Shown here: one piece after another, positions 1 through 8,657 of the stretch
How positions within the stretch are numbered: the first letter of the stretch is position 1
Layout: each line of letters starts with the position of its first letter
Source: Gammaproteobacteria bacterium
GTDB taxonomy: Bacteria > Pseudomonadota > Gammaproteobacteria > GCA-001735895
Reading direction: 5' to 3'
Length of the DNA: 64,000 bases
NCBI GenBank assembly: GCA_014382695.1
Contig: JACNJF010000194.1
Coordinates: 861-64,860, forward strand
The notes under the pieces: model-generated
The model's database searches: none
Seen by the model: only the letters and a program-made list of their open reading frames with translations
What the model was told of the DNA's origin: nothing
Made by a program: the position numbers and the translations under genes

Positions 1-284
1 GTAGTGCGGTATTCATGGAAGAGCAAGGCCATGCTTTGAATATGCGATATAGCCGACGCAAACACAATATTATCTGGTCCGATGATGTGCTGACGCAGGA
101 GGCGCTGGATTGTCTGGATGGGTTTCTGGAGTCGGACTCACCCTACCATGTACGCTACCGTCTGAATCAGGGCGAAGGTGTTATGTGTAATAATGTATTG
201 CATACACGCACTGCCTTTACCGACAGTGCTGAACATAAGCGAGTTTATTATCGGGCTCGATACTACAACCGAATTGAATGTTAG
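1..284 (+). CDS. C-terminal fragment of a TauD/TfdA-family Fe(II)/2-oxoglutarate dioxygenase-like protein (ORF open to window edge)
   Basis: Reading frame open from position 3 to the stop at 284. C-terminal pattern N-x-x-L-H-x-R-T-A-F ... R-x-Y-Y-R-A-R-Y resembles the conserved C-terminus of TauD/TfdA dioxygenases. First gene of a tightly spaced three-gene cluster. Confidence 0.4.
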   Translation, partial: SAVFMEEQGHALNMRYSRRKHNIIWSDDVLTQEALDCLDGFLESDSPYHVRYRLNQGEGVMCNNVLHTRTAFTDSAEHKRVYYRARYYNRIEC

Positions 285-296
285 AGAGAGAATTTT

Positions 297-485
297 ATGC
301 TGTGGCTAAGTGAAGTACTACTGCAAAACCCGCAACTGGAGTCGTTTGAAGATCTACAGGATGTCATTTCTAAGCGCGCGGCTGCGGGAGAGCGTTTTTT
401 CAGAATGGATTTAAAACCGCCGTTCAGCGATACCCCCGGAAACTGGGAAGATCGCCTGGAAGCTGTTTTTACCGCAGTACGCTAA
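297..485 (+). CDS. hypothetical 62-aa protein, second gene of the 5' operon
   Basis: Starts 12 nt after the upstream stop, with a GAGAG purine-rich tract just upstream. No recognisable motif. Confidence 0.35.
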   Translation: MLWLSEVLLQNPQLESFEDLQDVISKRAAAGERFFRMDLKPPFSDTPGNWEDRLEAVFTAVR

Positions 486-503
486 AGCAGGGGAGTCAAT
501 TCT

Positions 504-1196
504 ATGTACTGGCAGGAAGATCAGGATAAAGGTGAGCACTTCGTTGTTCCAGATGATGTAGTGGACCTACTGTTCAGTATCGAGTGCAGAGATCTGCCGC
601 TGGATCATGGCTTTGTACTGTCACAGCAGATCATAAAAAATCTGCCCTGGATACAGGAAGAGCCGCAGGCAGGCATCCATCAGATACATGTGGCCGAATC
701 GGCGAATGGCTGGATGCGTCCGGAAAATACTGAAACCGAAGTGCTGTGTGTTTCTCGTCGTACTAAAATGACACTACGATTGCCAGCCAGCAGACTGGAT
801 GAGGCAACAGCATTGACTGGAAAAACGCTCGACATACAGGGCCATGCGTTGACGGTAGGGCGTTTCTCTACCCGCAAACTGAGTCGATTAACCACTATAT
901 TTGCGCGTTATGTGGATACCCTCGGTAGCGATGACGAAACCGAGTTCCTGGAGTCGATGCAGCAACAACTGTTGCAGAAAGGCATCCGGGTTAAGAAGAT
1001 GATGAGTGGAAGGCTGCTCACCCATCAAAGCGATGAAGGCATCATCCTCACCCGTAAACTGATGGTTAGCGACCTGACCGTTGAAGAGTCTGTGCTGCTG
1101 CAGGAGCAGGGCATAGGCGACCGAAAATTAATGGGAATGGGTATCTTTATGCCACATAAGGGCATAGATGCGGTGAATAAAAAGCAGGAAGGCTAG
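504..1196 (+). CDS. 230-aa hypothetical protein with a C-terminal Cas6/RAMP-like glycine-rich loop (GIGDRKLMGMGIF)
   Basis: C-terminus carries G-h-G-x5-G-h-G-h, which matches the canonical Cas6 G-rich loop in both position and spacing. Size fits Cas6-type proteins. No CRISPR array anywhere in the window. Confidence 0.45.
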   Translation: MYWQEDQDKGEHFVVPDDVVDLLFSIECRDLPLDHGFVLSQQIIKNLPWIQEEPQAGIHQIHVAESANGWMRPENTETEVLCVSRRTKMTLRLPASRLDEATALTGKTLDIQGHALTVGRFSTRKLSRLTTIFARYVDTLGSDDETEFLESMQQQLLQKGIRVKKMMSGRLLTHQSDEGIILTRKLMVSDLTVEESVLLQEQGIGDRKLMGMGIFMPHKGIDAVNKKQEG

Positions 1197-1301
1197 TCAC
1201 TTACTATAACCAATGGGATAAGTGACTTTTCTAAAAACTTGTGGGAAAGTACTGCCCGAATTATTCCATTGATAACAACTTAACGATATTGAGGCATACC
1301 T

Positions 1302-1622
1302 ATGGCACTTGAGTCAGTCGAAAGAACAGAAAAAGGTTACCTGGTCAATTCAAATGACTGGAATGAAGAAATCGCAGCAGAGCTTTTTGCAGAAGAAGGC
1401 ATTACTCCTACCAAAGAACACTGGGATATCATCAAGTACGTGCGTGAGGAAACGCTGGGTGGAGATGAGCCGAATGAGCGTAGCATCATGAAAGCGATGG
1501 GCAAGATCTGGGGGCGCAAGGTGAGCTCGAAGGAAATGTATGAAATGTTTCCCCTTATGCCGTCCAAGCAGGGTCTGAAGATTGGTGGTTGTCCGCAAAG
1601 TACCCGTAAAGGCGGTTATTGA
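1302..1622 (+). CDS. DsrC/TusE/RspA-family protein, atypical C-terminus
   Basis: EKGYLVNSNDW ... EHWDIIKYVRE ... MFPLMPSKQ aligns with DsrC/TusE family motifs (EEGYL..W, EEHWDII.FLREYY, LFPYGPAKQ). The C-terminal arm ends GGCPQSTRKGGY instead of C..GLPKPTGCV. Confidence 0.8.
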   Translation: MALESVERTEKGYLVNSNDWNEEIAAELFAEEGITPTKEHWDIIKYVREETLGGDEPNERSIMKAMGKIWGRKVSSKEMYEMFPLMPSKQGLKIGGCPQSTRKGGY

Positions 1623-1769: not shown

Positions 1770-1973
1770 ATGAGCGACAAAGCGGCAAAGATTCAAGAGC
1801 TGATCGAAATGCAGAAAAAATTTATTGCATACGAACAAAAAAATGGCGTTAACTTCAAAGACTATTTCACACCAGAAGCTGGTCATGAGTTAGATGGTTA
1901 CCGTCAATCTTATATGGATAAGGCGATGGAACTGGTCGATATTGCGCATGCGGAAAAAGGATCGCATCGTTAA
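1770..1973 (+). CDS. hypothetical 67-aa protein
   Basis: AGGAAGAATTT ribosome-binding site upstream. Followed immediately by a canonical intrinsic terminator. Confidence 0.5.
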   Translation: MSDKAAKIQELIEMQKKFIAYEQKNGVNFKDYFTPEAGHELDGYRQSYMDKAMELVDIAHAEKGSHR

Positions 1974-2190: not shown

Positions 2191-5100
2191 ATGATTTTAG
2201 CGCAACCATTAACTCGACCGGATATAGGGATGCATCAGTCTATCTCTGTTGGCATCAATGGCTTATTCCATGATCTCGAATATAGTTTAAGTTTACTTTT
2301 CAATATATTGATTTATTTAGTATTTGTATCAATATTTCTGCTGTCTTCTGTTGCATTTGCCAATCAGGCACCTGGTTTTGTGGCAACCTCTTTACTACGC
2401 GTAGCCCTCGATGATAACTATCCACCATACGTCATGCGTAGGACTGATGGTTCAGTTGAAGGTTACCTGATCGATGAATGGAAGTTGTGGGAAGCTAAAA
2501 CCGGTGTCAAAGTCGAGCTGATTGCGACGGACTGGGCGCAGGCAAAAAAAAACATGGCAGAGGGCCGCTCCGATGTGATTGATACTATCTTCCGCACGTC
2601 TGAGAGGGAAACCCGACTGGAATTCAGTGCGCCATACGCGACCTTGCCCGTTTCCATCTATACGATTTCGAAACTGCTCGGTATCAATGATATCAACGGA
2701 CTGGAAGGCTTTCGGGTGGGTGTAAAGGATGGTGATGCCTGTGTCGACAGGCTGCGTGCCGGCGGAATTACCGATATAAAGCCTTATACCGATTATGAAA
2801 CCCTGTTGCAGGCAGTTCTGGCTGAGAAGGTGCATGTTTTCTGTATGGATGATCCCCCTGCCAATTATCTTATTTTCCGGGCTGGAGCCGAACACAAGCT
2901 ACTCAAGGCTTTTAGCCTGTATAGCGGAGAGTTTCATCGTGCCGTGCGCAAAGGTGATAGCGCGACTCTGGCTCTGGTTGAGTCGGGATTTGCAGCGATT
3001 ACAGCGCCTGAGCGTGAAGCGTTGCAGGATAAGTGGATGGGACAGAGCCTGCAAAATCCATTGCTACGCAATCTCATTTATTACCTTGTTATTGCTGCGA
3101 TCCTGGCGGTGTTACTGCTGGTCGTATCACTCATACTTCGCCATCTGGTGAGAGTACGCACAGCCGCTCTGGTCACTTCACAAAATAAACTGCAGGCGAC
3201 ACTGGATGCGTTACCGGACCTCTTGTTTGAGATGGATATCAACGGGTGTTATCTCGCTTACCACTCTCCCCGCACCGATTTACTGGCGCTTCCTGTCGAG
3301 CATTTTCTGGGCAAGAAAAACGATGAATTATTGCCGCCCGAAGTGGCTAAAATTGGCATGGAGGCAATACAAGAAGCCGCACAAATGGGCTTTTCCTCGG
3401 GCCGCCAGTTTGAGTTAAGGCTCGGTGGTGTGATTCACTGGTTTGAGCTATCGGTTGCTCGAAAATCGGGTGAGGCTGGCAAACTTCCTTCCTTCGTCGT
3501 ACTTTCTCGTGATATCACCTCACGTAAGCTGGCAGAGTTACAGGTTGCCCGTTTGACCCGTCTATACGCAGCCTTAAGTCAGTGCAACCAGGCGATAGTA
3601 CGTTGCACAACTGAAGCTGAGCTGTTTACCCAGATTTGCCGCGATGCGGTGAATTTTGGTGGGATGAAAATGGCCTGGATCGGTTTGATGGACGAAACCA
3701 CCAACAGTGTTAATCCAGTGGCCGCTTTTGGCGAGGGAATTAAGTATCTGGAGGGACTGGAGATTTCCCTGGATGCGAATTCAGCCAGTGGTCGTGGCCC
3801 GACCGGAATCGCCTTACGCGAAGACCGGCCTTACTGGTGCCAGGATTTTGAGCAGGATCCGGCTACTGCACTTTGGCATGAGCGCGCTGCAGAGTTTGGC
3901 TGGAAATCATCGGCGGCATTACCTCTTTACCGCAACAATATCATCATCGGTGCCTTTAATCTGTATGAAGATAGTGTCGATGCGTTTGATGAGGCCGCGC
4001 AAAACCTGCTGGTCGAAATGGCAACCGATATCAGCTATGCGCTGACCAATTTTGCCCATCAGCAAGCGCGCCAGCAGGCGGAACATGAACGTGAACAGTT
4101 GCTGCAACGAGAACAGCAGGCACGCAATGAAGCCGATAAAACGCGCCGGACCATCAGCGATATCATCGGTAGAATCAGTGATGGCTTCGTCGCACTGGAC
4201 AGAAACTGGTGCTACACCTATGTCAATTCTCAGGCTGCTGAGATGTTTGATCGTAGCGTAGAACAACTAGTCGGTAAGCATATCTGGACAGAGTTCCCCG
4301 AAGGGGTGGGGCAAAAATTTCAACTGGCCTACGAAAAAGCGATGCATGAGCAGAAACCAGCTTTTTTTGAGGAGTATTATCCACCTTATAAGCGCTGGTT
4401 TGAGAATCACATCTATCCATCCCCGGATGGGATATCGATTTACTTTCACGATGTCACCGAACGCAAGCGCATAGAGCAGGCATTACGCGAAAGTGAACAG
4501 GCTTACCGCGCTACTTTTGAGCAGGCCGCTGTGGGTATTGCAAATGTAGCAGCCGATGGGACCTGGCTCGAGGTTAATAACCGGCTGGCTGAGATTGTCG
4601 GCTATACGCATGATGAGTTACTCGAGTTGACCTTTCAGGACATCACGCATCCGGCTGATCTACAGAAAGATCTGGACAGTGTGCATCGGTTACTGGCTGG
4701 AGAAATCGATACCTACAAAATGGAGAAGCGCTATATCCGTAAGTCAGGTGACTTCATATGGATACAGTTAACTGCTTCGCTGGTGAAAAATGATGACGGA
4801 TCGCCCAAATACTTTATTTCAGTAATAGAGGATATCCATCAGCGTAAACTTGATGAGGTTCAATTGCATAAATTGTCGATCGTGGTTGAGCAAAGCCCCA
4901 ATCCCATCATGATTACCGATCTGGACACCAAGATTGAGTATGTGAATGCAGCTTTCAATCAAGTCTCCGGTTACAGTTCAGACGAAGCGCTGGGGAAAAC
5001 ACCGCAATTATTAAAATCAGGCGAGACTCCCATCGAGGTCTATCAGGATATGTGGGCACATCTTTTACGCGGTGAGGTATGGCGTGGAGAACTAACCAAT

Positions 5101-6531
5101 CAACGCAAGGATGGCAGCGTGTATGACGAGCTGGCGATCATTTCGCCGGTGCGTGATGCCAATGGAACTATCACCAATTATCTCGGCATCAAGGAAAACA
5201 TTACCGAGAAAAAGCATGCTGAAGCGCGCATTCAGCAACTGGCCTATTTTGACCAACTCACCGGCCTGCCCAATCGCAGCCAGTTGATTGACCGCTTCAA
5301 TTCTGCACTCAGTTTTGCGCAACGTAATACTGAGAAATTGGCGCTCATGTTTCTGGATCTGGATCATTTCAAGAATATCAATGACACCCTGGGGCATAGT
5401 ATTGGAGATAAATTACTGGTAAAGGTTGCGCACCGGCTTAAACGTATCCTGCGCGAAGAGGACACTTTATCGAGGCTGGGCGGTGATGAGTTCATCCTGT
5501 TATTGCCAAATACCGAGGAAGATGAAGCGCGCCAGATTGCGATTAAACTGATTGAAGCGATTGCTCTACCGTTTCAGCTTGATCAGTATGAACTGGGAAG
5601 TACGCTGTCGATAGGTATTGCGATCTACCCGCTTGATGGCGAAGACTTTGAAACACTGCTACGCAATGCGGATACCGCAATGTACCGGGTGAAACAGGCC
5701 GCGCGTAACGATTTCTGTTTCTTTACCGAGGAGATGCAACTGCATTCTGCGCGCGCATTGAAACTACTGAATGCATTACGTCATGCGCTGGCACGGAATG
5801 AACTGCAGCTACATTATCAGCCACAAATAGAGTTGGTCAGTGGAAGGGTGATTGGTGCGGAAGCCTTACTGCGTTGGAACAATGCTGAGCTGGGTATGAT
5901 TTCACCGGCTGAGTTTATCCCGATTGCGGAAGAGAGTGGACTGATTTTACCGATCGGTGAATGGGTGTTGCGCAGCGCAGTGACTCAGATGAAGCGCTGG
6001 ATGGATGACGGCCTGGCACCGATTGTCGTAGCCGTGAATCTGTCCGTGGTGCAGTTTCGTCATCCTAATCTGACCGACCTGGTCACACGGATACTGAAAC
6101 AGGCTGGTTTGCCGGCGCAGTATCTGGAGCTGGAGTTGACCGAGGCGGTTGCGATGAAAGATCCACAGGGTGCTATTGGAGTGATGAACCGATTGCATGA
6201 GCAAGGTATCCAGATGTCGATCGATGACTTTGGAACCGGTTATTCCAGTTTGAGTTATCTAAAGAAATTCAAGATTGCCAAACTCAAAATCGACCAGTCA
6301 TTTGTACGCGATATTATTGATGATCCGGATGATAGGGCGATTGTGGTTGCGATCATCAATCTGGCCCGTAGTCTGGGTATCCAAACCCTTGCCGAAGGGG
6401 TCGAAACGGAGCATCAGCAGTCACTCCTGCAGGCCCAGGGCTGTGATGAAGTGCAGGGTTATTACTACAGCAGACCGCTGCCGGCGGATCAGTTTGAAGC
6501 CTATGTGCGGAATAAGACAGGCTTAAATTGA
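2191..6531 (+). CDS. multidomain sensor diguanylate cyclase/phosphodiesterase: periplasmic solute-binding-like domain, TM, PAS/GAF/PAS arrays, GGDEF, EAL
   Basis: N-terminal hydrophobic segment followed by a periplasmic domain with type-3 solute-binding-protein-like motifs. RLGGDEF with an upstream RxxD I-site (REED). EAL signatures AEALLRW, DDFGTGYSS and EGVE. PAS-like repeats (ITERKRIEQ etc.). N-terminal start codon uncertain. Confidence 0.9.
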   Translation: MILAQPLTRPDIGMHQSISVGINGLFHDLEYSLSLLFNILIYLVFVSIFLLSSVAFANQAPGFVATSLLRVALDDNYPPYVMRRTDGSVEGYLIDEWKLWEAKTGVKVELIATDWAQAKKNMAEGRSDVIDTIFRTSERETRLEFSAPYATLPVSIYTISKLLGINDINGLEGFRVGVKDGDACVDRLRAGGITDIKPYTDYETLLQAVLAEKVHVFCMDDPPANYLIFRAGAEHKLLKAFSLYSGEFHRAVRKGDSATLALVESGFAAITAPEREALQDKWMGQSLQNPLLRNLIYYLVIAAILAVLLLVVSLILRHLVRVRTAALVTSQNKLQATLDALPDLLFEMDINGCYLAYHSPRTDLLALPVEHFLGKKNDELLPPEVAKIGMEAIQEAAQMGFSSGRQFELRLGGVIHWFELSVARKSGEAGKLPSFVVLSRDITSRKLAELQVARLTRLYAALSQCNQAIVRCTTEAELFTQICRDAVNFGGMKMAWIGLMDETTNSVNPVAAFGEGIKYLEGLEISLDANSASGRGPTGIALREDRPYWCQDFEQDPATALWHERAAEFGWKSSAALPLYRNNIIIGAFNLYEDSVDAFDEAAQNLLVEMATDISYALTNFAHQQARQQAEHEREQLLQREQQARNEADKTRRTISDIIGRISDGFVALDRNWCYTYVNSQAAEMFDRSVEQLVGKHIWTEFPEGVGQKFQLAYEKAMHEQKPAFFEEYYPPYKRWFENHIYPSPDGISIYFHDVTERKRIEQALRESEQAYRATFEQAAVGIANVAADGTWLEVNNRLAEIVGYTHDELLELTFQDITHPADLQKDLDSVHRLLAGEIDTYKMEKRYIRKSGDFIWIQLTASLVKNDDGSPKYFISVIEDIHQRKLDEVQLHKLSIVVEQSPNPIMITDLDTKIEYVNAAFNQVSGYSSDEALGKTPQLLKSGETPIEVYQDMWAHLLRGEVWRGELTNQRKDGSVYDELAIISPVRDANGTITNYLGIKENITEKKHAEARIQQLAYFDQLTGLPNRSQLIDRFNSALSFAQRNTEKLALMFLDLDHFKNINDTLGHSIGDKLLVKVAHRLKRILREEDTLSRLGGDEFILLLPNTEEDEARQIAIKLIEAIALPFQLDQYELGSTLSIGIAIYPLDGEDFETLLRNADTAMYRVKQAARNDFCFFTEEMQLHSARALKLLNALRHALARNELQLHYQPQIELVSGRVIGAEALLRWNNAELGMISPAEFIPIAEESGLILPIGEWVLRSAVTQMKRWMDDGLAPIVVAVNLSVVQFRHPNLTDLVTRILKQAGLPAQYLELELTEAVAMKDPQGAIGVMNRLHEQGIQMSIDDFGTGYSSLSYLKKFKIAKLKIDQSFVRDIIDDPDDRAIVVAIINLARSLGIQTLAEGVETEHQQSLLQAQGCDEVQGYYYSRPLPADQFEAYVRNKTGLN

Positions 6532-6547: not shown

Positions 6548-7219
6548 TTAAAGTTCGACCCAGCGCCGCACCAGATTATTAAAGGTAGCACTAATCTTAC
6601 GGGTCGCTTCTGAGTTGGGTAATTCTTTATACAGCATTTCACGTGCCTGATTCAGCTCGTAAAGCATTTCGCGTTTTGCTGGATCGCGCACGGTACTTTG
6701 TGACCAGGTGACCGCAACCAGTCGAACTCCACTGGTAACCGGCGCGACATAATGACGACTATGCGACGGGTACATCACTGCAGAACCGGCTTGCAGCTTG
6801 ATCTGCCTTTCACCATAGCTATCCATGATGGTCAGTTCGCCCCCTTCATAGTCTTCCGGATCGGATAAGAAAATGGTGGTTGAGACATCGGTGCGGTAGA
6901 GTTCTCCCTGACCCATGATCGGATCATCGACATGTTCACCATACGCCATACCCTGTTCATAACGCACATAAAACGGGGCCGCGACACGTTTTGGCCACAC
7001 CACCGCCTTAAATTTCGGGTGGCGCACCAGGTTACCCATTACCAATTCATTGAGTTCATTAAAATGGCTCGATTGCGGATTCATTTCCTGATTATTTTTG
7101 ACCCCCCTGGCCATCATGCCTGCAGAAAGCCTGCCATCGACGAAAGGGGAATCCTGCAGTAACTGCCTTATTTTAGTCAGGTTTTGTGCGGATATAAGGT
7201 GATCAATAGAAGCTAACAT
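6548..7219 (-). CDS. piuC: PKHD-type Fe(II)/2OG hydroxylase (PiuC/YbiX family)
   Basis: Near-colinear similarity to E. coli YbiX (e.g. GGELTIMDSYGERQIKLQAGSAVMYPSHSRHYV; NLVRRWVEL C-terminus). Confidence 0.9.
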   Translation of the reverse strand: MLASIDHLISAQNLTKIRQLLQDSPFVDGRLSAGMMARGVKNNQEMNPQSSHFNELNELVMGNLVRHPKFKAVVWPKRVAAPFYVRYEQGMAYGEHVDDPIMGQGELYRTDVSTTIFLSDPEDYEGGELTIMDSYGERQIKLQAGSAVMYPSHSRHYVAPVTSGVRLVAVTWSQSTVRDPAKREMLYELNQAREMLYKELPNSEATRKISATFNNLVRRWVEL

Positions 7220-7655: not shown

Positions 7656-8657
7656 ATGGTGTTGAAGCAAATTTACCTCTCTCTGATATTCCTGTTCAGC
7701 GTGCCGTTAAGCGCGCAGACGGCTTGCTGGGAGATAGAAAATAACGACCAGCGTCTGGCTTGCTACGACCAGCAGGAACAAGCTGCCGAAGACGCGCTAC
7801 CTCTGGACCGGATCAAAAGCCGGAAAACACCGGAGGAGGGTGAATACTCGCTGTTGAATGAGCGCTGGGAGCTGGATCAGGATCTGGTGCAATACGCCTT
7901 TCGTGCCTATAAACCGGTTTATTTTCTGCCTATTGCCTACAGCTCAGATGTGAATACATCACCACGCACCAATAATCCCATCACAAGCGTTACCGATGAA
8001 CTCAACATCGATCATCTGGAAGCGCGACTGCAGCTCAGTTTCAAAACCAAATTGATCAACGATGTGATTGGTGATAATGGGGATCTGTGGTTCGGCTATA
8101 CCCAGTCATCACACTGGCAACTGTACAATACCGCAGAGTCGCGCGCGTTCCGTGAAACCAATCATGAGCCCGAGTTCATGTTTGTGTGGCGTACCGATTA
8201 CAGCCTGTTCGGTTTTCATGGCAGGATGCTCAGTTTGAGCCTGAATCATCAATCCAACGGTCAGGATGAACCCCTTTCACGTAGCTGGAACCGCATTATT
8301 CTGACCGTCGGTTTTGACCGTCCGGACTGGGTGGTGCAACTGCGCCCCTGGTGGCGGATACCGGAACGGTCTGCGGAAGAGGATGAAAACCCGGATATTG
8401 AAGATAGTATTGGGCGTGGCGAACTGCTGATCGTTCACCGCAAGAAAAACTCACATCAGATTGCGACCCAGATACGTCACTCATTCGAGCGTCTGGAACA
8501 GGCTCAGGGGTCGATTAAGGTGGACTGGTCTTATCCCTGTTTTCATCGACTGCGCTGTCATGCTCAGGTCTTTCACGGCTATGGTGAAAGCCTGATCGAC
8601 TTTAATCATAAAACCACCAGTGTTGGCCTCGGTGTCGCCTTAGTGGAATGGTTTTAA
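7656..8657 (+). CDS. pldA: outer-membrane phospholipase A1 (OMPLA)
   Basis: Signal peptide. Catalytic block LNHQSNGQDEPLSRSWNRI matches the OMPLA His-Ser-Asn triad region (E. coli NHDSNGRSDPTSRSWNRLY). C-terminal YGESLIDFN identical in style to E. coli PldA. Confidence 0.92.
   Translation: MVLKQIYLSLIFLFSVPLSAQTACWEIENNDQRLACYDQQEQAAEDALPLDRIKSRKTPEEGEYSLLNERWELDQDLVQYAFRAYKPVYFLPIAYSSDVNTSPRTNNPITSVTDELNIDHLEARLQLSFKTKLINDVIGDNGDLWFGYTQSSHWQLYNTAESRAFRETNHEPEFMFVWRTDYSLFGFHGRMLSLSLNHQSNGQDEPLSRSWNRIILTVGFDRPDWVVQLRPWWRIPERSAEEDENPDIEDSIGRGELLIVHRKKNSHQIATQIRHSFERLEQAQGSIKVDWSYPCFHRLRCHAQVFHGYGESLIDFNHKTTSVGLGVALVEWF

Follow-up and report, generated by a model that had tools for sequence, protein, structure and literature searches.

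A Cas6-like protein branch outside CRISPR, encoded with a conserved gene set beside the dsr genes of sulfur-oxidizing Gammaproteobacteria

What is a protein resembling the RNA-processing enzyme Cas6 doing between an oxygenase gene and a DsrC-like gene, in DNA without a clustered regularly interspaced short palindromic repeat (CRISPR) array? The question is raised by the first genes of a 64,000-nucleotide (nt) stretch of contig JACNJF010000194.1 (positions 861 to 64,860, forward strand), from the gammaproteobacterial assembly GCA_014382695.1; we refer to this whole stretch as the window. A preliminary description had reported three tightly spaced open reading frames (ORFs), and their spacing is as claimed: a TauD-like fragment ends at position 284, and ORFs of 62 and 230 codons follow after gaps of 12 and 18 nt. 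The 230-residue protein is a real member of the Cas6 fold and derives from the type I-B/I-MYXAN Cas6 (Cmx6) lineage. The branch to which it belongs is large and strongly conserved, and it is independent of CRISPR in the window and the 160 related loci that the scan covered. Its gene is a member of a conserved set comprising dsrQ, the 62-residue ORF, an optional 245-residue ORF, a 67-residue ORF, a cysteine-less paralogue of DsrC and a YbiX-type hydroxylase. The set stands, in most genomes, head-to-head with the dsrABEFHCMKL genes of sulfur-oxidizing Gammaproteobacteria. As working names, we use Cas6L for the Cas6-like branch, and s62 and s67 for the two small ORFs.

Related loci were collected in two samples. 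For the genome sample, one genome per species was scanned; relatives were found in 177 species, and the best 80 loci were kept. The metagenome sample is independent, with a divergent query alignment yielding 391 relatives, for which 80 loci were returned. Denominators in the counts of neighbouring genes are the loci with sufficient flanking sequence. The best 80 of the 177 species are Gammaproteobacteria, except for three metagenome-assembled genomes whose deposited names go no further than Proteobacteria/Pseudomonadota, and one that carries the label Bacteroidota. Named carriers in the genome sample are Thiothrix, Leucothrix pacifica, Sulfuricaulis, Thioalkalispiraceae, Thiohalobacteraceae and Ectothiorhodospiraceae. 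The DNA upstream of the window was read from L001, a 115-kb public metagenomic contig that carries an identical Cas6L protein; position 1 of the window corresponds to L001 9498.

Fold, conserved residues and genomic context of Cas6L

The Pfam family PF09559 (Cas6 Crispr) matches Cas6L with E 3.6e-57 and 193.9 bits, for a cut-off of 26.7, over positions 1-190 of the 191 in the profile. The NCBIfam model TIGR02807 (cas6_cmx6, subtype I-MYXAN) gives 123.4 bits, its cut-off being 98.85. A profile of the family, compared with the sequences in the PDB, matched only 8fcj_B, the Cas6 of a type I-B CRISPR-associated transposon (CAST) Cascade (E 5e-16, residues 16-218), aligning the glycine-rich loop of Cas6L with GIGGKRKMMCGIF. 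An AlphaFold2 model, calculated from an alignment of 40 homologues, has a predicted local distance difference test (pLDDT) score of 87.3 and a predicted template modelling (pTM) score of 0.83. It contains the double RNA recognition motif (RRM)/ferredoxin-like architecture, and nearly all its top matches in Foldseek are Cas6 or Cse3 proteins, with 8fcj_B in first place (template modelling (TM) scores of 0.76/0.80). The Cas6/RAMP fold, originally proposed from a 13-residue motif, is thus found by both family models, by the profile match to 8fcj_B and by Foldseek, a resemblance well beyond coincidence. The family is large: it accounts for 1178 of the 1.84 billion cluster representatives searched (50% clustering), the match having E<=1e-30 in 205 cases, and the motifs of the Cas6L branch are present in most of the best 150.

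The motif itself, the glycine-rich loop, occupies the C-terminal position ascribed to it and aligns with the equivalent loops of 8fcj_B and the cyanobacterial Cmx6 proteins. It had also been said to follow a beta-hairpin; a hairpin is indeed modelled at residues 165-189, but the helix formed by residues 193-202 lies between the two. Gly203, Gly211, Gly213 and Phe215 of the loop are invariant in the 40 sequences, which have 45 invariant columns in all, indicating strong constraint. His35 immediately precedes helix 1, where the catalytic histidine of Cas6 is usually found, and is shared with the Cmx6 proteins of Synechocystis and Gloeothece. A catalytic role for His35 is not established, because the solved relative 8fcj_B has an asparagine at that position.

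Other features distinguish the branch from Cmx6. Its most conserved part is a His-rich loop, IHQIHVAESANGWxRP, which is an insertion of about ten residues when compared with Cmx6. His59, His62, Glu65, Ser66, Gly69, Trp70, Arg72 and Pro73 are invariant in it, and the motif H..H.A.S..GW is also found in distant representatives. In the monomer model the loop has low confidence, with pLDDT below 50 at residues 66-70. Cys28, His59, His62, Glu65 and His218 are invariant in Cas6L only, when set against the two cyanobacterial Cmx6 sequences in the alignment. Conversely, a basic insertion of about 16 residues in these Cmx6 proteins, IPKRLTLQIKKPERTY, is missing from Cas6L, and the isoelectric point (pI) of Cas6L has a median of 5.99 (range 5.0-7.9, n=79), compared with values of 9.4 and 9.6 in the two Cmx6 proteins. 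The branch also has a conserved N-terminal extension, MYWQE, and a conserved C-terminus, PHKGIDAVN. Segments 1-9, 66-70 and 223-230, although conserved, have no order in the monomer model. Segments of this kind often serve in interactions, and these may too. Cas6/RAMP proteins had been described as RNA-binding endoribonucleases. The fold is that of Cas6, but this function is not simply transferable, as the branch has lost its basic character.

The absence of a CRISPR array, noted from the beginning, was borne out. Tandem Repeats Finder (TRF) returned nothing on the window, a k-mer scan found no array in it but did detect the Synechocystis array used as positive control, and among 55 ORFs of the window PADLOC recognized Cas6 as the sole cas family. 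Over about 1.2 Mb of loci, the k-mer scan gave the Synechocystis control array and nothing else. The metagenome sample (about 0.6 Mb) contained no arrays and no other cas genes. A CRISPR-like match in L155 was rejected as an array, being a perfect 75-nt tandem repeat. For contrast, CRISPR-linked cyanobacterial Cmx6 proteins were found by tblastn against plasmids, and two, from Synechocystis and Gloeothece, were aligned with Cas6L. They are about 25% identical to it and lie within complete cas6-cas3-cas8-cas7-cas5-cas4/1-cas2 operons. An array is visible at the Synechocystis locus; in Gloeothece, the 3 kb past cas2 contain transposase genes and no array. The Cas3, Cas8, Cas7, Cas5 and Cas4-1/2 proteins of these two operons gave zero tblastn matches in the window or the 160 related loci, while Cmx6 as query in the same searches matched 97 loci in the first set and 80 in the metagenome set.

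The conserved gene set beside dsrAB

The operon had been thought to continue upstream of the window. On L001 it is the full dsrQ gene that starts it (292 codons, L001 8903-9781), beginning 594 nt upstream of the window and facing dsrA (L001 7419-8669). Opposite dsrQ, on the other strand, the order is dsrA-dsrB-dsrEFH-dsrC-dsrMKL, so the upstream region is a reverse dissimilatory sulfite reductase (Dsr) locus of sulfur oxidizers from which dsrQ diverges. The features of the locus are collected in Table 1.

Table 1. Features of the Cas6L locus. Positions are those of the window unless a locus is named.
Feature	Position	Strand	Basis or remark
Cas6L, Cas6/Cmx6-family double-RRM protein, 230 residues	504..1196	+	Pfam, NCBIfam, PDB profile match, AlphaFold2/Foldseek, alignments
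His35 codon, motif P-L-D-H, just before helix 1	606..608	+	invariant in 40/40 sequences
Branch-specific His-rich loop IHQIHVAESANGWMRP, residues 59-73, absent from CRISPR-linked Cmx6	678..722	+	alignments
Glycine-rich loop GIGDRKLMGMGIF, residues 203-215, RAMP hallmark	1110..1148	+	aligns with loops of 8fcj_B and cyanobacterial Cmx6
dsrQ 3' end, C-terminal 93 codons, TauD/TfdA-family Fe(II)/2-oxoglutarate oxygenase	1..284	+	PF02668 match on the fragment
s62, acidic 62-residue protein, most constant partner of Cas6L	297..485	+	394 homologues, neighbourhood counts
DsrC-family paralogue, 106 residues, without both redox-active cysteines, RKGGY tail	1302..1622	+	PF04358, E 1e-23
s67, 67-residue protein ending EKGSHR	1770..1973	+	present in 47/67 genome and 41/48 metagenome loci
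YbiX-type (PKHD) Fe(II)/2-oxoglutarate hydroxylase, second oxygenase of the set	6548..7219	-	PF13640 and PF18331; NF003974, 247 bits
Weak terminator-like hairpin (tentative), 8-bp stem, 15-nt loop, TTTT	1196..1230	+	fold of 1190-1310, z-score -1.0
Palindrome, L001 (about 670 nt upstream of window position 1)	L001 8815-8830		
Palindrome, L093	L093 7531-7546		
Palindrome, L100	L100 2663-2678		
Palindrome, L059	L059 5623-5638		

The set recurs in both samples. Near Cas6L, s62 is present, immediately upstream, in 75 of 80 genome loci and 42 of 45 metagenome loci, dsrQ in 61/66 and 29/33, a divergent dsrA in 44/55 and 22/23, the DsrC-like gene in 56/70 and 44/48, and the YbiX-type PKHD hydroxylase gene in 39/56 and 33/37; figures for s67 are in Table 1. 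The 245-residue ORF, counted in the metagenome sample, lies between s62 and Cas6L in 16 of 53 loci. Gaps are short within the core, with medians of 12.5 nt between dsrQ and s62 and 12 nt between s62 and Cas6L; about 130 nt separate Cas6L from the DsrC-like gene. Gene order varies by lineage while the set remains constant: s67 comes before or after the DsrC-like gene, and the latter may be on either strand. This points to functional coupling, and not to inherited synteny alone.

The core also occurs without dsr genes. In L079 and L086 the s62-Cas6L pair is found without dsrQ or dsrA. In L094, L095 and L149 a TauD-s62-Cas6L core lies away from dsr, with a Peptidase_S24 (UmuD/LexA-like) gene after it, and L094 has two PKHD hydroxylase genes downstream as well. 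In these loci (L095 6693-9103, L094 181-2962 and L149), the Peptidase_S24 gene, encoding 129-146 residues, replaces the DsrC-like gene. The unit can thus stand by itself, and its attachment to dsrAB is usual but not universal. The proposal of a solitary Cas6/RAMP gene in an operon with an oxygenase, beside a DsrC-like gene and in non-CRISPR use, is borne out by the family assignment, by the conserved linkage and by the lack of cognate Cas proteins. It had been considered that a known family which always accompanies the dioxygenase would tell against this proposal. The pairing with the dioxygenase is conserved, yet the family in question turns out to be Cas6, which strengthens the proposal.

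Full-length DsrQ matches PF02668 with E 4.8e-19. Its iron-binding motifs (H-x-D...H) and conserved arginine are intact, as WH[TS]DGYY (in 52 of 53 sequences), NNVLHxR and RxxYRxRY. Its nearest characterized relatives are TmpA, gamma-butyrobetaine hydroxylase (BBOX) and trimethyllysine hydroxylase (TMLH) rather than TauD proper, although it scores far below the cut-offs of these families. According to PMC7596348, a review of Dsr gene arrangements, it was Lenk et al. 2012 who gave the name dsrQ to a tauD-like gene diverging from dsrA; the same review reports it to be restricted to aerobic and facultative sulfur oxidizers and speculates that its product releases sulfite from sulfonates. A second paper, bioRxiv 197269, in which a DsrU appears beside DsrQ, gives the function of DsrQ as unknown. 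The window's first ORF is the end of such a gene: it is of the TauD family and head-to-head with dsrA, in the arrangement described in PMC7596348. What the accessible literature treats is a single gene, with its s62, Cas6-like, DsrC-like, s67 and PKHD companions unmentioned. DsrU we take to be a Chlorobaculum gene and not Cas6L.

No Pfam domain was found among 394 homologues of s62. Its N-terminus, MLWLSE, is invariant, 20 columns are invariant in 32 sequences, and the median pI is 4.5. The AlphaFold2 model consists of three helices (pLDDT 91.4), and a fold search against the PDB gave nothing below E=2. A relationship to DsrC was rejected (hhalign probability 0.2%); NCBI records for three s62 homologues (P0141, P0189 and P0192) carry the name 'sulfur relay protein DsrC', which looks wrong. 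Nor do s62 proteins match DUF6967. In one locus (L093, GCA_003751635.1), a 71-residue DUF6967 ORF at 7789-8004 is found between dsrA and Cas6L, instead of s62. A candidate s62-Cas6L fusion, P0267, was rejected as well, its N-terminal extension being unlike s62.

DsrC has two conserved cysteines in its C-terminal arm, the penultimate residue and a second one ten residues before it. In the alignment of the paralogue with canonical DsrC, KQAC has become KQG and GC[VI] has become RKGGY, and the RKGGY terminus is present in all 57 of 57 homologues. Both redox cysteines being replaced, the paralogue must be incapable of the trisulfide chemistry of DsrC. Cysteine-less paralogues of this kind go by the name RspA-type in reviews. 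The window's subclade has an unrelated cysteine in the arm (GGCPQS).

No Pfam or NCBIfam family matched s67, which accompanies the module even in a high-GC lineage where its identity falls to 30%, and which directly follows Cas6L in L099 and L100. The PKHD hydroxylase also accompanies Cas6L outside dsr, in L094. In the window it is separated from s67 by a gene on the + strand (2191-6531) for a 1446-residue solute-binding/PAS/GAF/GGDEF/EAL signalling protein; in most other loci, the hydroxylase gene is reached within about 1 kb. The hydroxylase matches the PADLOC profile '2OG', listed as CRISPR-associated, and one may speculate that this label stems from the neighbourhoods of solitary Cas6-like genes. 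The optional ORF encodes 242-245 residues and matches no family; its dsr-linked (L087 9141-9878) and non-dsr (L094 375-1103) versions are 44% identical. PADLOC assigned no defence-system family to dsrQ, s62, the DsrC-like gene, s67 or the 245-residue ORF. Its other matches among the 55 window ORFs were to SspA/DndA (E 1e-181), SspH (E 2e-60), SduA, mad8 and HerA profiles; the SspA/DndA match is possibly an IscS-type cysteine desulfurase.

Possible roles of the module

In the explanation that we favour, and that taken as a whole we hold to be moderately probable, Cas6L, independent of CRISPR, would act with its dsr-linked gene set in an oxygen-linked tuning of the Dsr pathway. DsrQ, s62 and Cas6L are probably co-translated and would assemble into one complex, because the gaps between their genes are only about 12 nt. 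The Cas6 fold would be re-used as a recognition or docking platform, by way of the new His-rich loop and the conserved disordered termini, and the two oxygenases would provide chemistry dependent on O2 and 2-oxoglutarate. A macromolecule seems a more likely target than free sulfonate, candidates being an RNA or the DsrC paralogue, by its flexible RKGGY tail. In aerobic or facultatively aerobic sulfur oxidizers, the Dsr pathway would thereby be tuned or regulated according to oxygen, which would fit the restriction of dsrQ reported in PMC7596348.

Several points weigh against this explanation. Cas6L keeps features of an RNA-binding type, namely the glycine-rich loop, His35 and the invariant Arg86, Arg92, Arg135, Lys165, Arg184 and Lys219, and it may bind RNA or phosphate. 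In L093, L099 and L100, Cas6L is head-to-head with dsrA without dsrQ, and L100 has no recognizable s62; a complex of DsrQ, s62 and Cas6L is therefore not obligatory everywhere. Conservation of the neighbourhood among Gammaproteobacteria could partly reflect shared ancestry, although the variable gene order argues otherwise. The speculation about DsrQ in PMC7596348, release of sulfite from sulfonates, needs no Cas6L. Complex formation, substrate and oxygen dependence are all inferred.

An RNA partner was looked for at the locus. At gathering thresholds, no Rfam family matched the window or six loci. The spacer between Cas6L and the DsrC-like gene contains no conserved hairpin, only clade-specific promoter-like motifs, and repeats in the dsr-Cas6L region of L001 were limited to chance-level matches. 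The stem of the terminator-like hairpin after the Cas6L stop codon is not kept beyond close relatives. The dsrA-dsrQ spacer, in turn, contains a 16-nt palindrome, TAYCCC-N4-GGGRTA, located 120-320 nt before the dsrA start, even where dsrQ is missing. Each of 36 loci of the first set (30 of these being distinct genome or metagenome loci) and of 12 loci of the second contains a single copy, without exception in the spacer; if one mismatch is tolerated, nearly every locus containing the dsrA upstream region has it. In stem and loop size it equals the hairpin of a Cmx6-type CRISPR repeat. In L059, where Cas6L is 3 kb off, the palindrome remains with dsrA, and it is missing from the Cas6L loci without dsrA (L079, L086, L094 and L095). 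All four combinations at position 3 of the arms (T/A, C/G, T/G and C/A) occur on the same strand. DNA half-sites fit this better than an RNA stem formed on one strand. The palindrome is thus unlikely to be the RNA target of Cas6L, since it tracks dsrA and not Cas6L, and since pairing between its arms is not maintained on one strand; it probably serves a dimeric dsr regulator as operator, with two independent DNA half-sites. We regard it as a separate finding on dsr regulation, of which we know no description, and as a testable regulatory site upstream of dsrA.

The main alternative is that Cas6L binds, and perhaps cuts, an RNA stem-loop, acting post-transcriptionally on the dsr messenger RNA (mRNA) or its own mRNA, or guiding an oxygenase to RNA. 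The idea draws on the conservation throughout the branch of the glycine-rich loop and His35, in common with CRISPR-linked Cmx6, on ten conserved basic residues, four of which (Lys164, Lys165, Arg184 and Lys185) are on the C-terminal beta-hairpin, and on the palindrome, which nearly all dsr-linked loci have in the interval from dsrA to the Cas6L operon and which is of Cmx6-like hairpin size. The fall in pI from 9.4-9.6 to about 6, the loss of the basic insertion, the empty Rfam and spacer searches, and the attachment of the palindrome to dsrA, with arms better suited to DNA half-sites, leave it a possibility that we would not bet on. We likewise judge it somewhat unlikely that a domesticated Cas6L still recognizes a nucleic-acid stem-loop, coupled to oxygenase chemistry or mRNA processing. 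Were the stem-loop idea true, a CRISPR RNA-processing protein would now serve core sulfur oxidation in widespread environmental bacteria, either as an oxygen-responsive post-transcriptional controller or as the targeting subunit of an RNA modification system.

DsrQ might instead be the only enzyme of consequence, delivering sulfite from an organosulfonate to Dsr or Soe, with Cas6L and the small ORFs as passengers or decaying remnants. TauD-family chemistry would suit sulfonate cleavage, as speculated in PMC7596348. But Cas6L and s62 are strongly constrained in sequence, as their invariant columns show (45 in 40 and 20 in 32 sequences), and they are more constant than dsrQ, which is absent from L093, L099 and L100, where Cas6L accompanies dsrA, and from L079 and L086, where it accompanies s62. 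The closest characterized relatives of DsrQ are, if weakly so, hydroxylases of the TmpA/BBOX/TMLH type and not TauD proper. We consider this explanation improbable. Far less probable still is a further explanation, in which Cas6L would be an ordinary CRISPR Cas6 acting on an array located elsewhere in the genome, in the manner of those type III systems that rely on a distant Cas6. It would agree with the name given by the NCBI pipeline, 'type I-MYXAN CRISPR-associated protein Cas6/Cmx6', which is assigned since TIGR02807 is passed, and with the extent of the search, which covered the loci and the window. Yet neither an array nor a further cas gene is present in the 160 loci and the 64-kb window, the fixed non-CRISPR neighbourhood is retained down to about 35-45% identity, and Cas6L is only about 25% identical to CRISPR-linked Cmx6, with other charge and other insertions. 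Both a Cas6 serving a distant array and a decaying remnant are very unlikely.

Energy metabolism thus seems to have taken on a protein of CRISPR origin. CRISPR biology would gain from this a clear and large example of a Cas protein co-opted by the host, extending over at least 205 clusters at 50% identity (E<=1e-30), with matches in 177 species genomes. The automatic 'CRISPR-associated' label on Cas6L genes misleads CRISPR censuses of sulfur oxidizers. For sulfur oxidation, the lone, unexplained dsrQ becomes part of a defined module of six or seven genes beside dsrAB, whose two O2-dependent oxygenases and cysteine-less DsrC paralogue are concrete candidates for the adaptation or regulation of Dsr in aerobic sulfur oxidizers. 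A full-text search, which did not cover Lenk et al. 2012 itself, found no literature linking Cas6 to dsr genes. Only dsrQ was thus already known, by name; the Cas6-like gene and the rest of the module are new within the searchable literature.

Comparison with known systems

The DsrC paralogue resembles DsrC/TusE in belonging to PF04358 and in having a C-terminal arm; unlike DsrC, it has lost the cysteines and ends in RKGGY. For Cas6L, the closest known systems are the type I-B/I-MYXAN Cas6/Cmx6 proteins, represented by 8FCJ chain B and by WP_071880938.1 from plasmid pSYLB of Synechocystis sp. PCC 6714. All belong to the same Pfam and NCBIfam family, and Cas6L and 8FCJ chain B have the double-RRM fold in common, superimposing with TM scores of 0.76-0.80. 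Like CRISPR Cmx6, Cas6L has a C-terminal glycine-rich loop and, as in the cyanobacterial proteins, a D-H motif before helix 1. It differs in sequence, with about 25% identity, in a pI of about 6 instead of about 9.5, and in having lost the basic insertion and gained the His-rich loop. It also differs in context: Cmx6 is accompanied by a cas operon, while Cas6L has no cas operon or array nearby, but a gene for a 62-residue partner in most of its loci.

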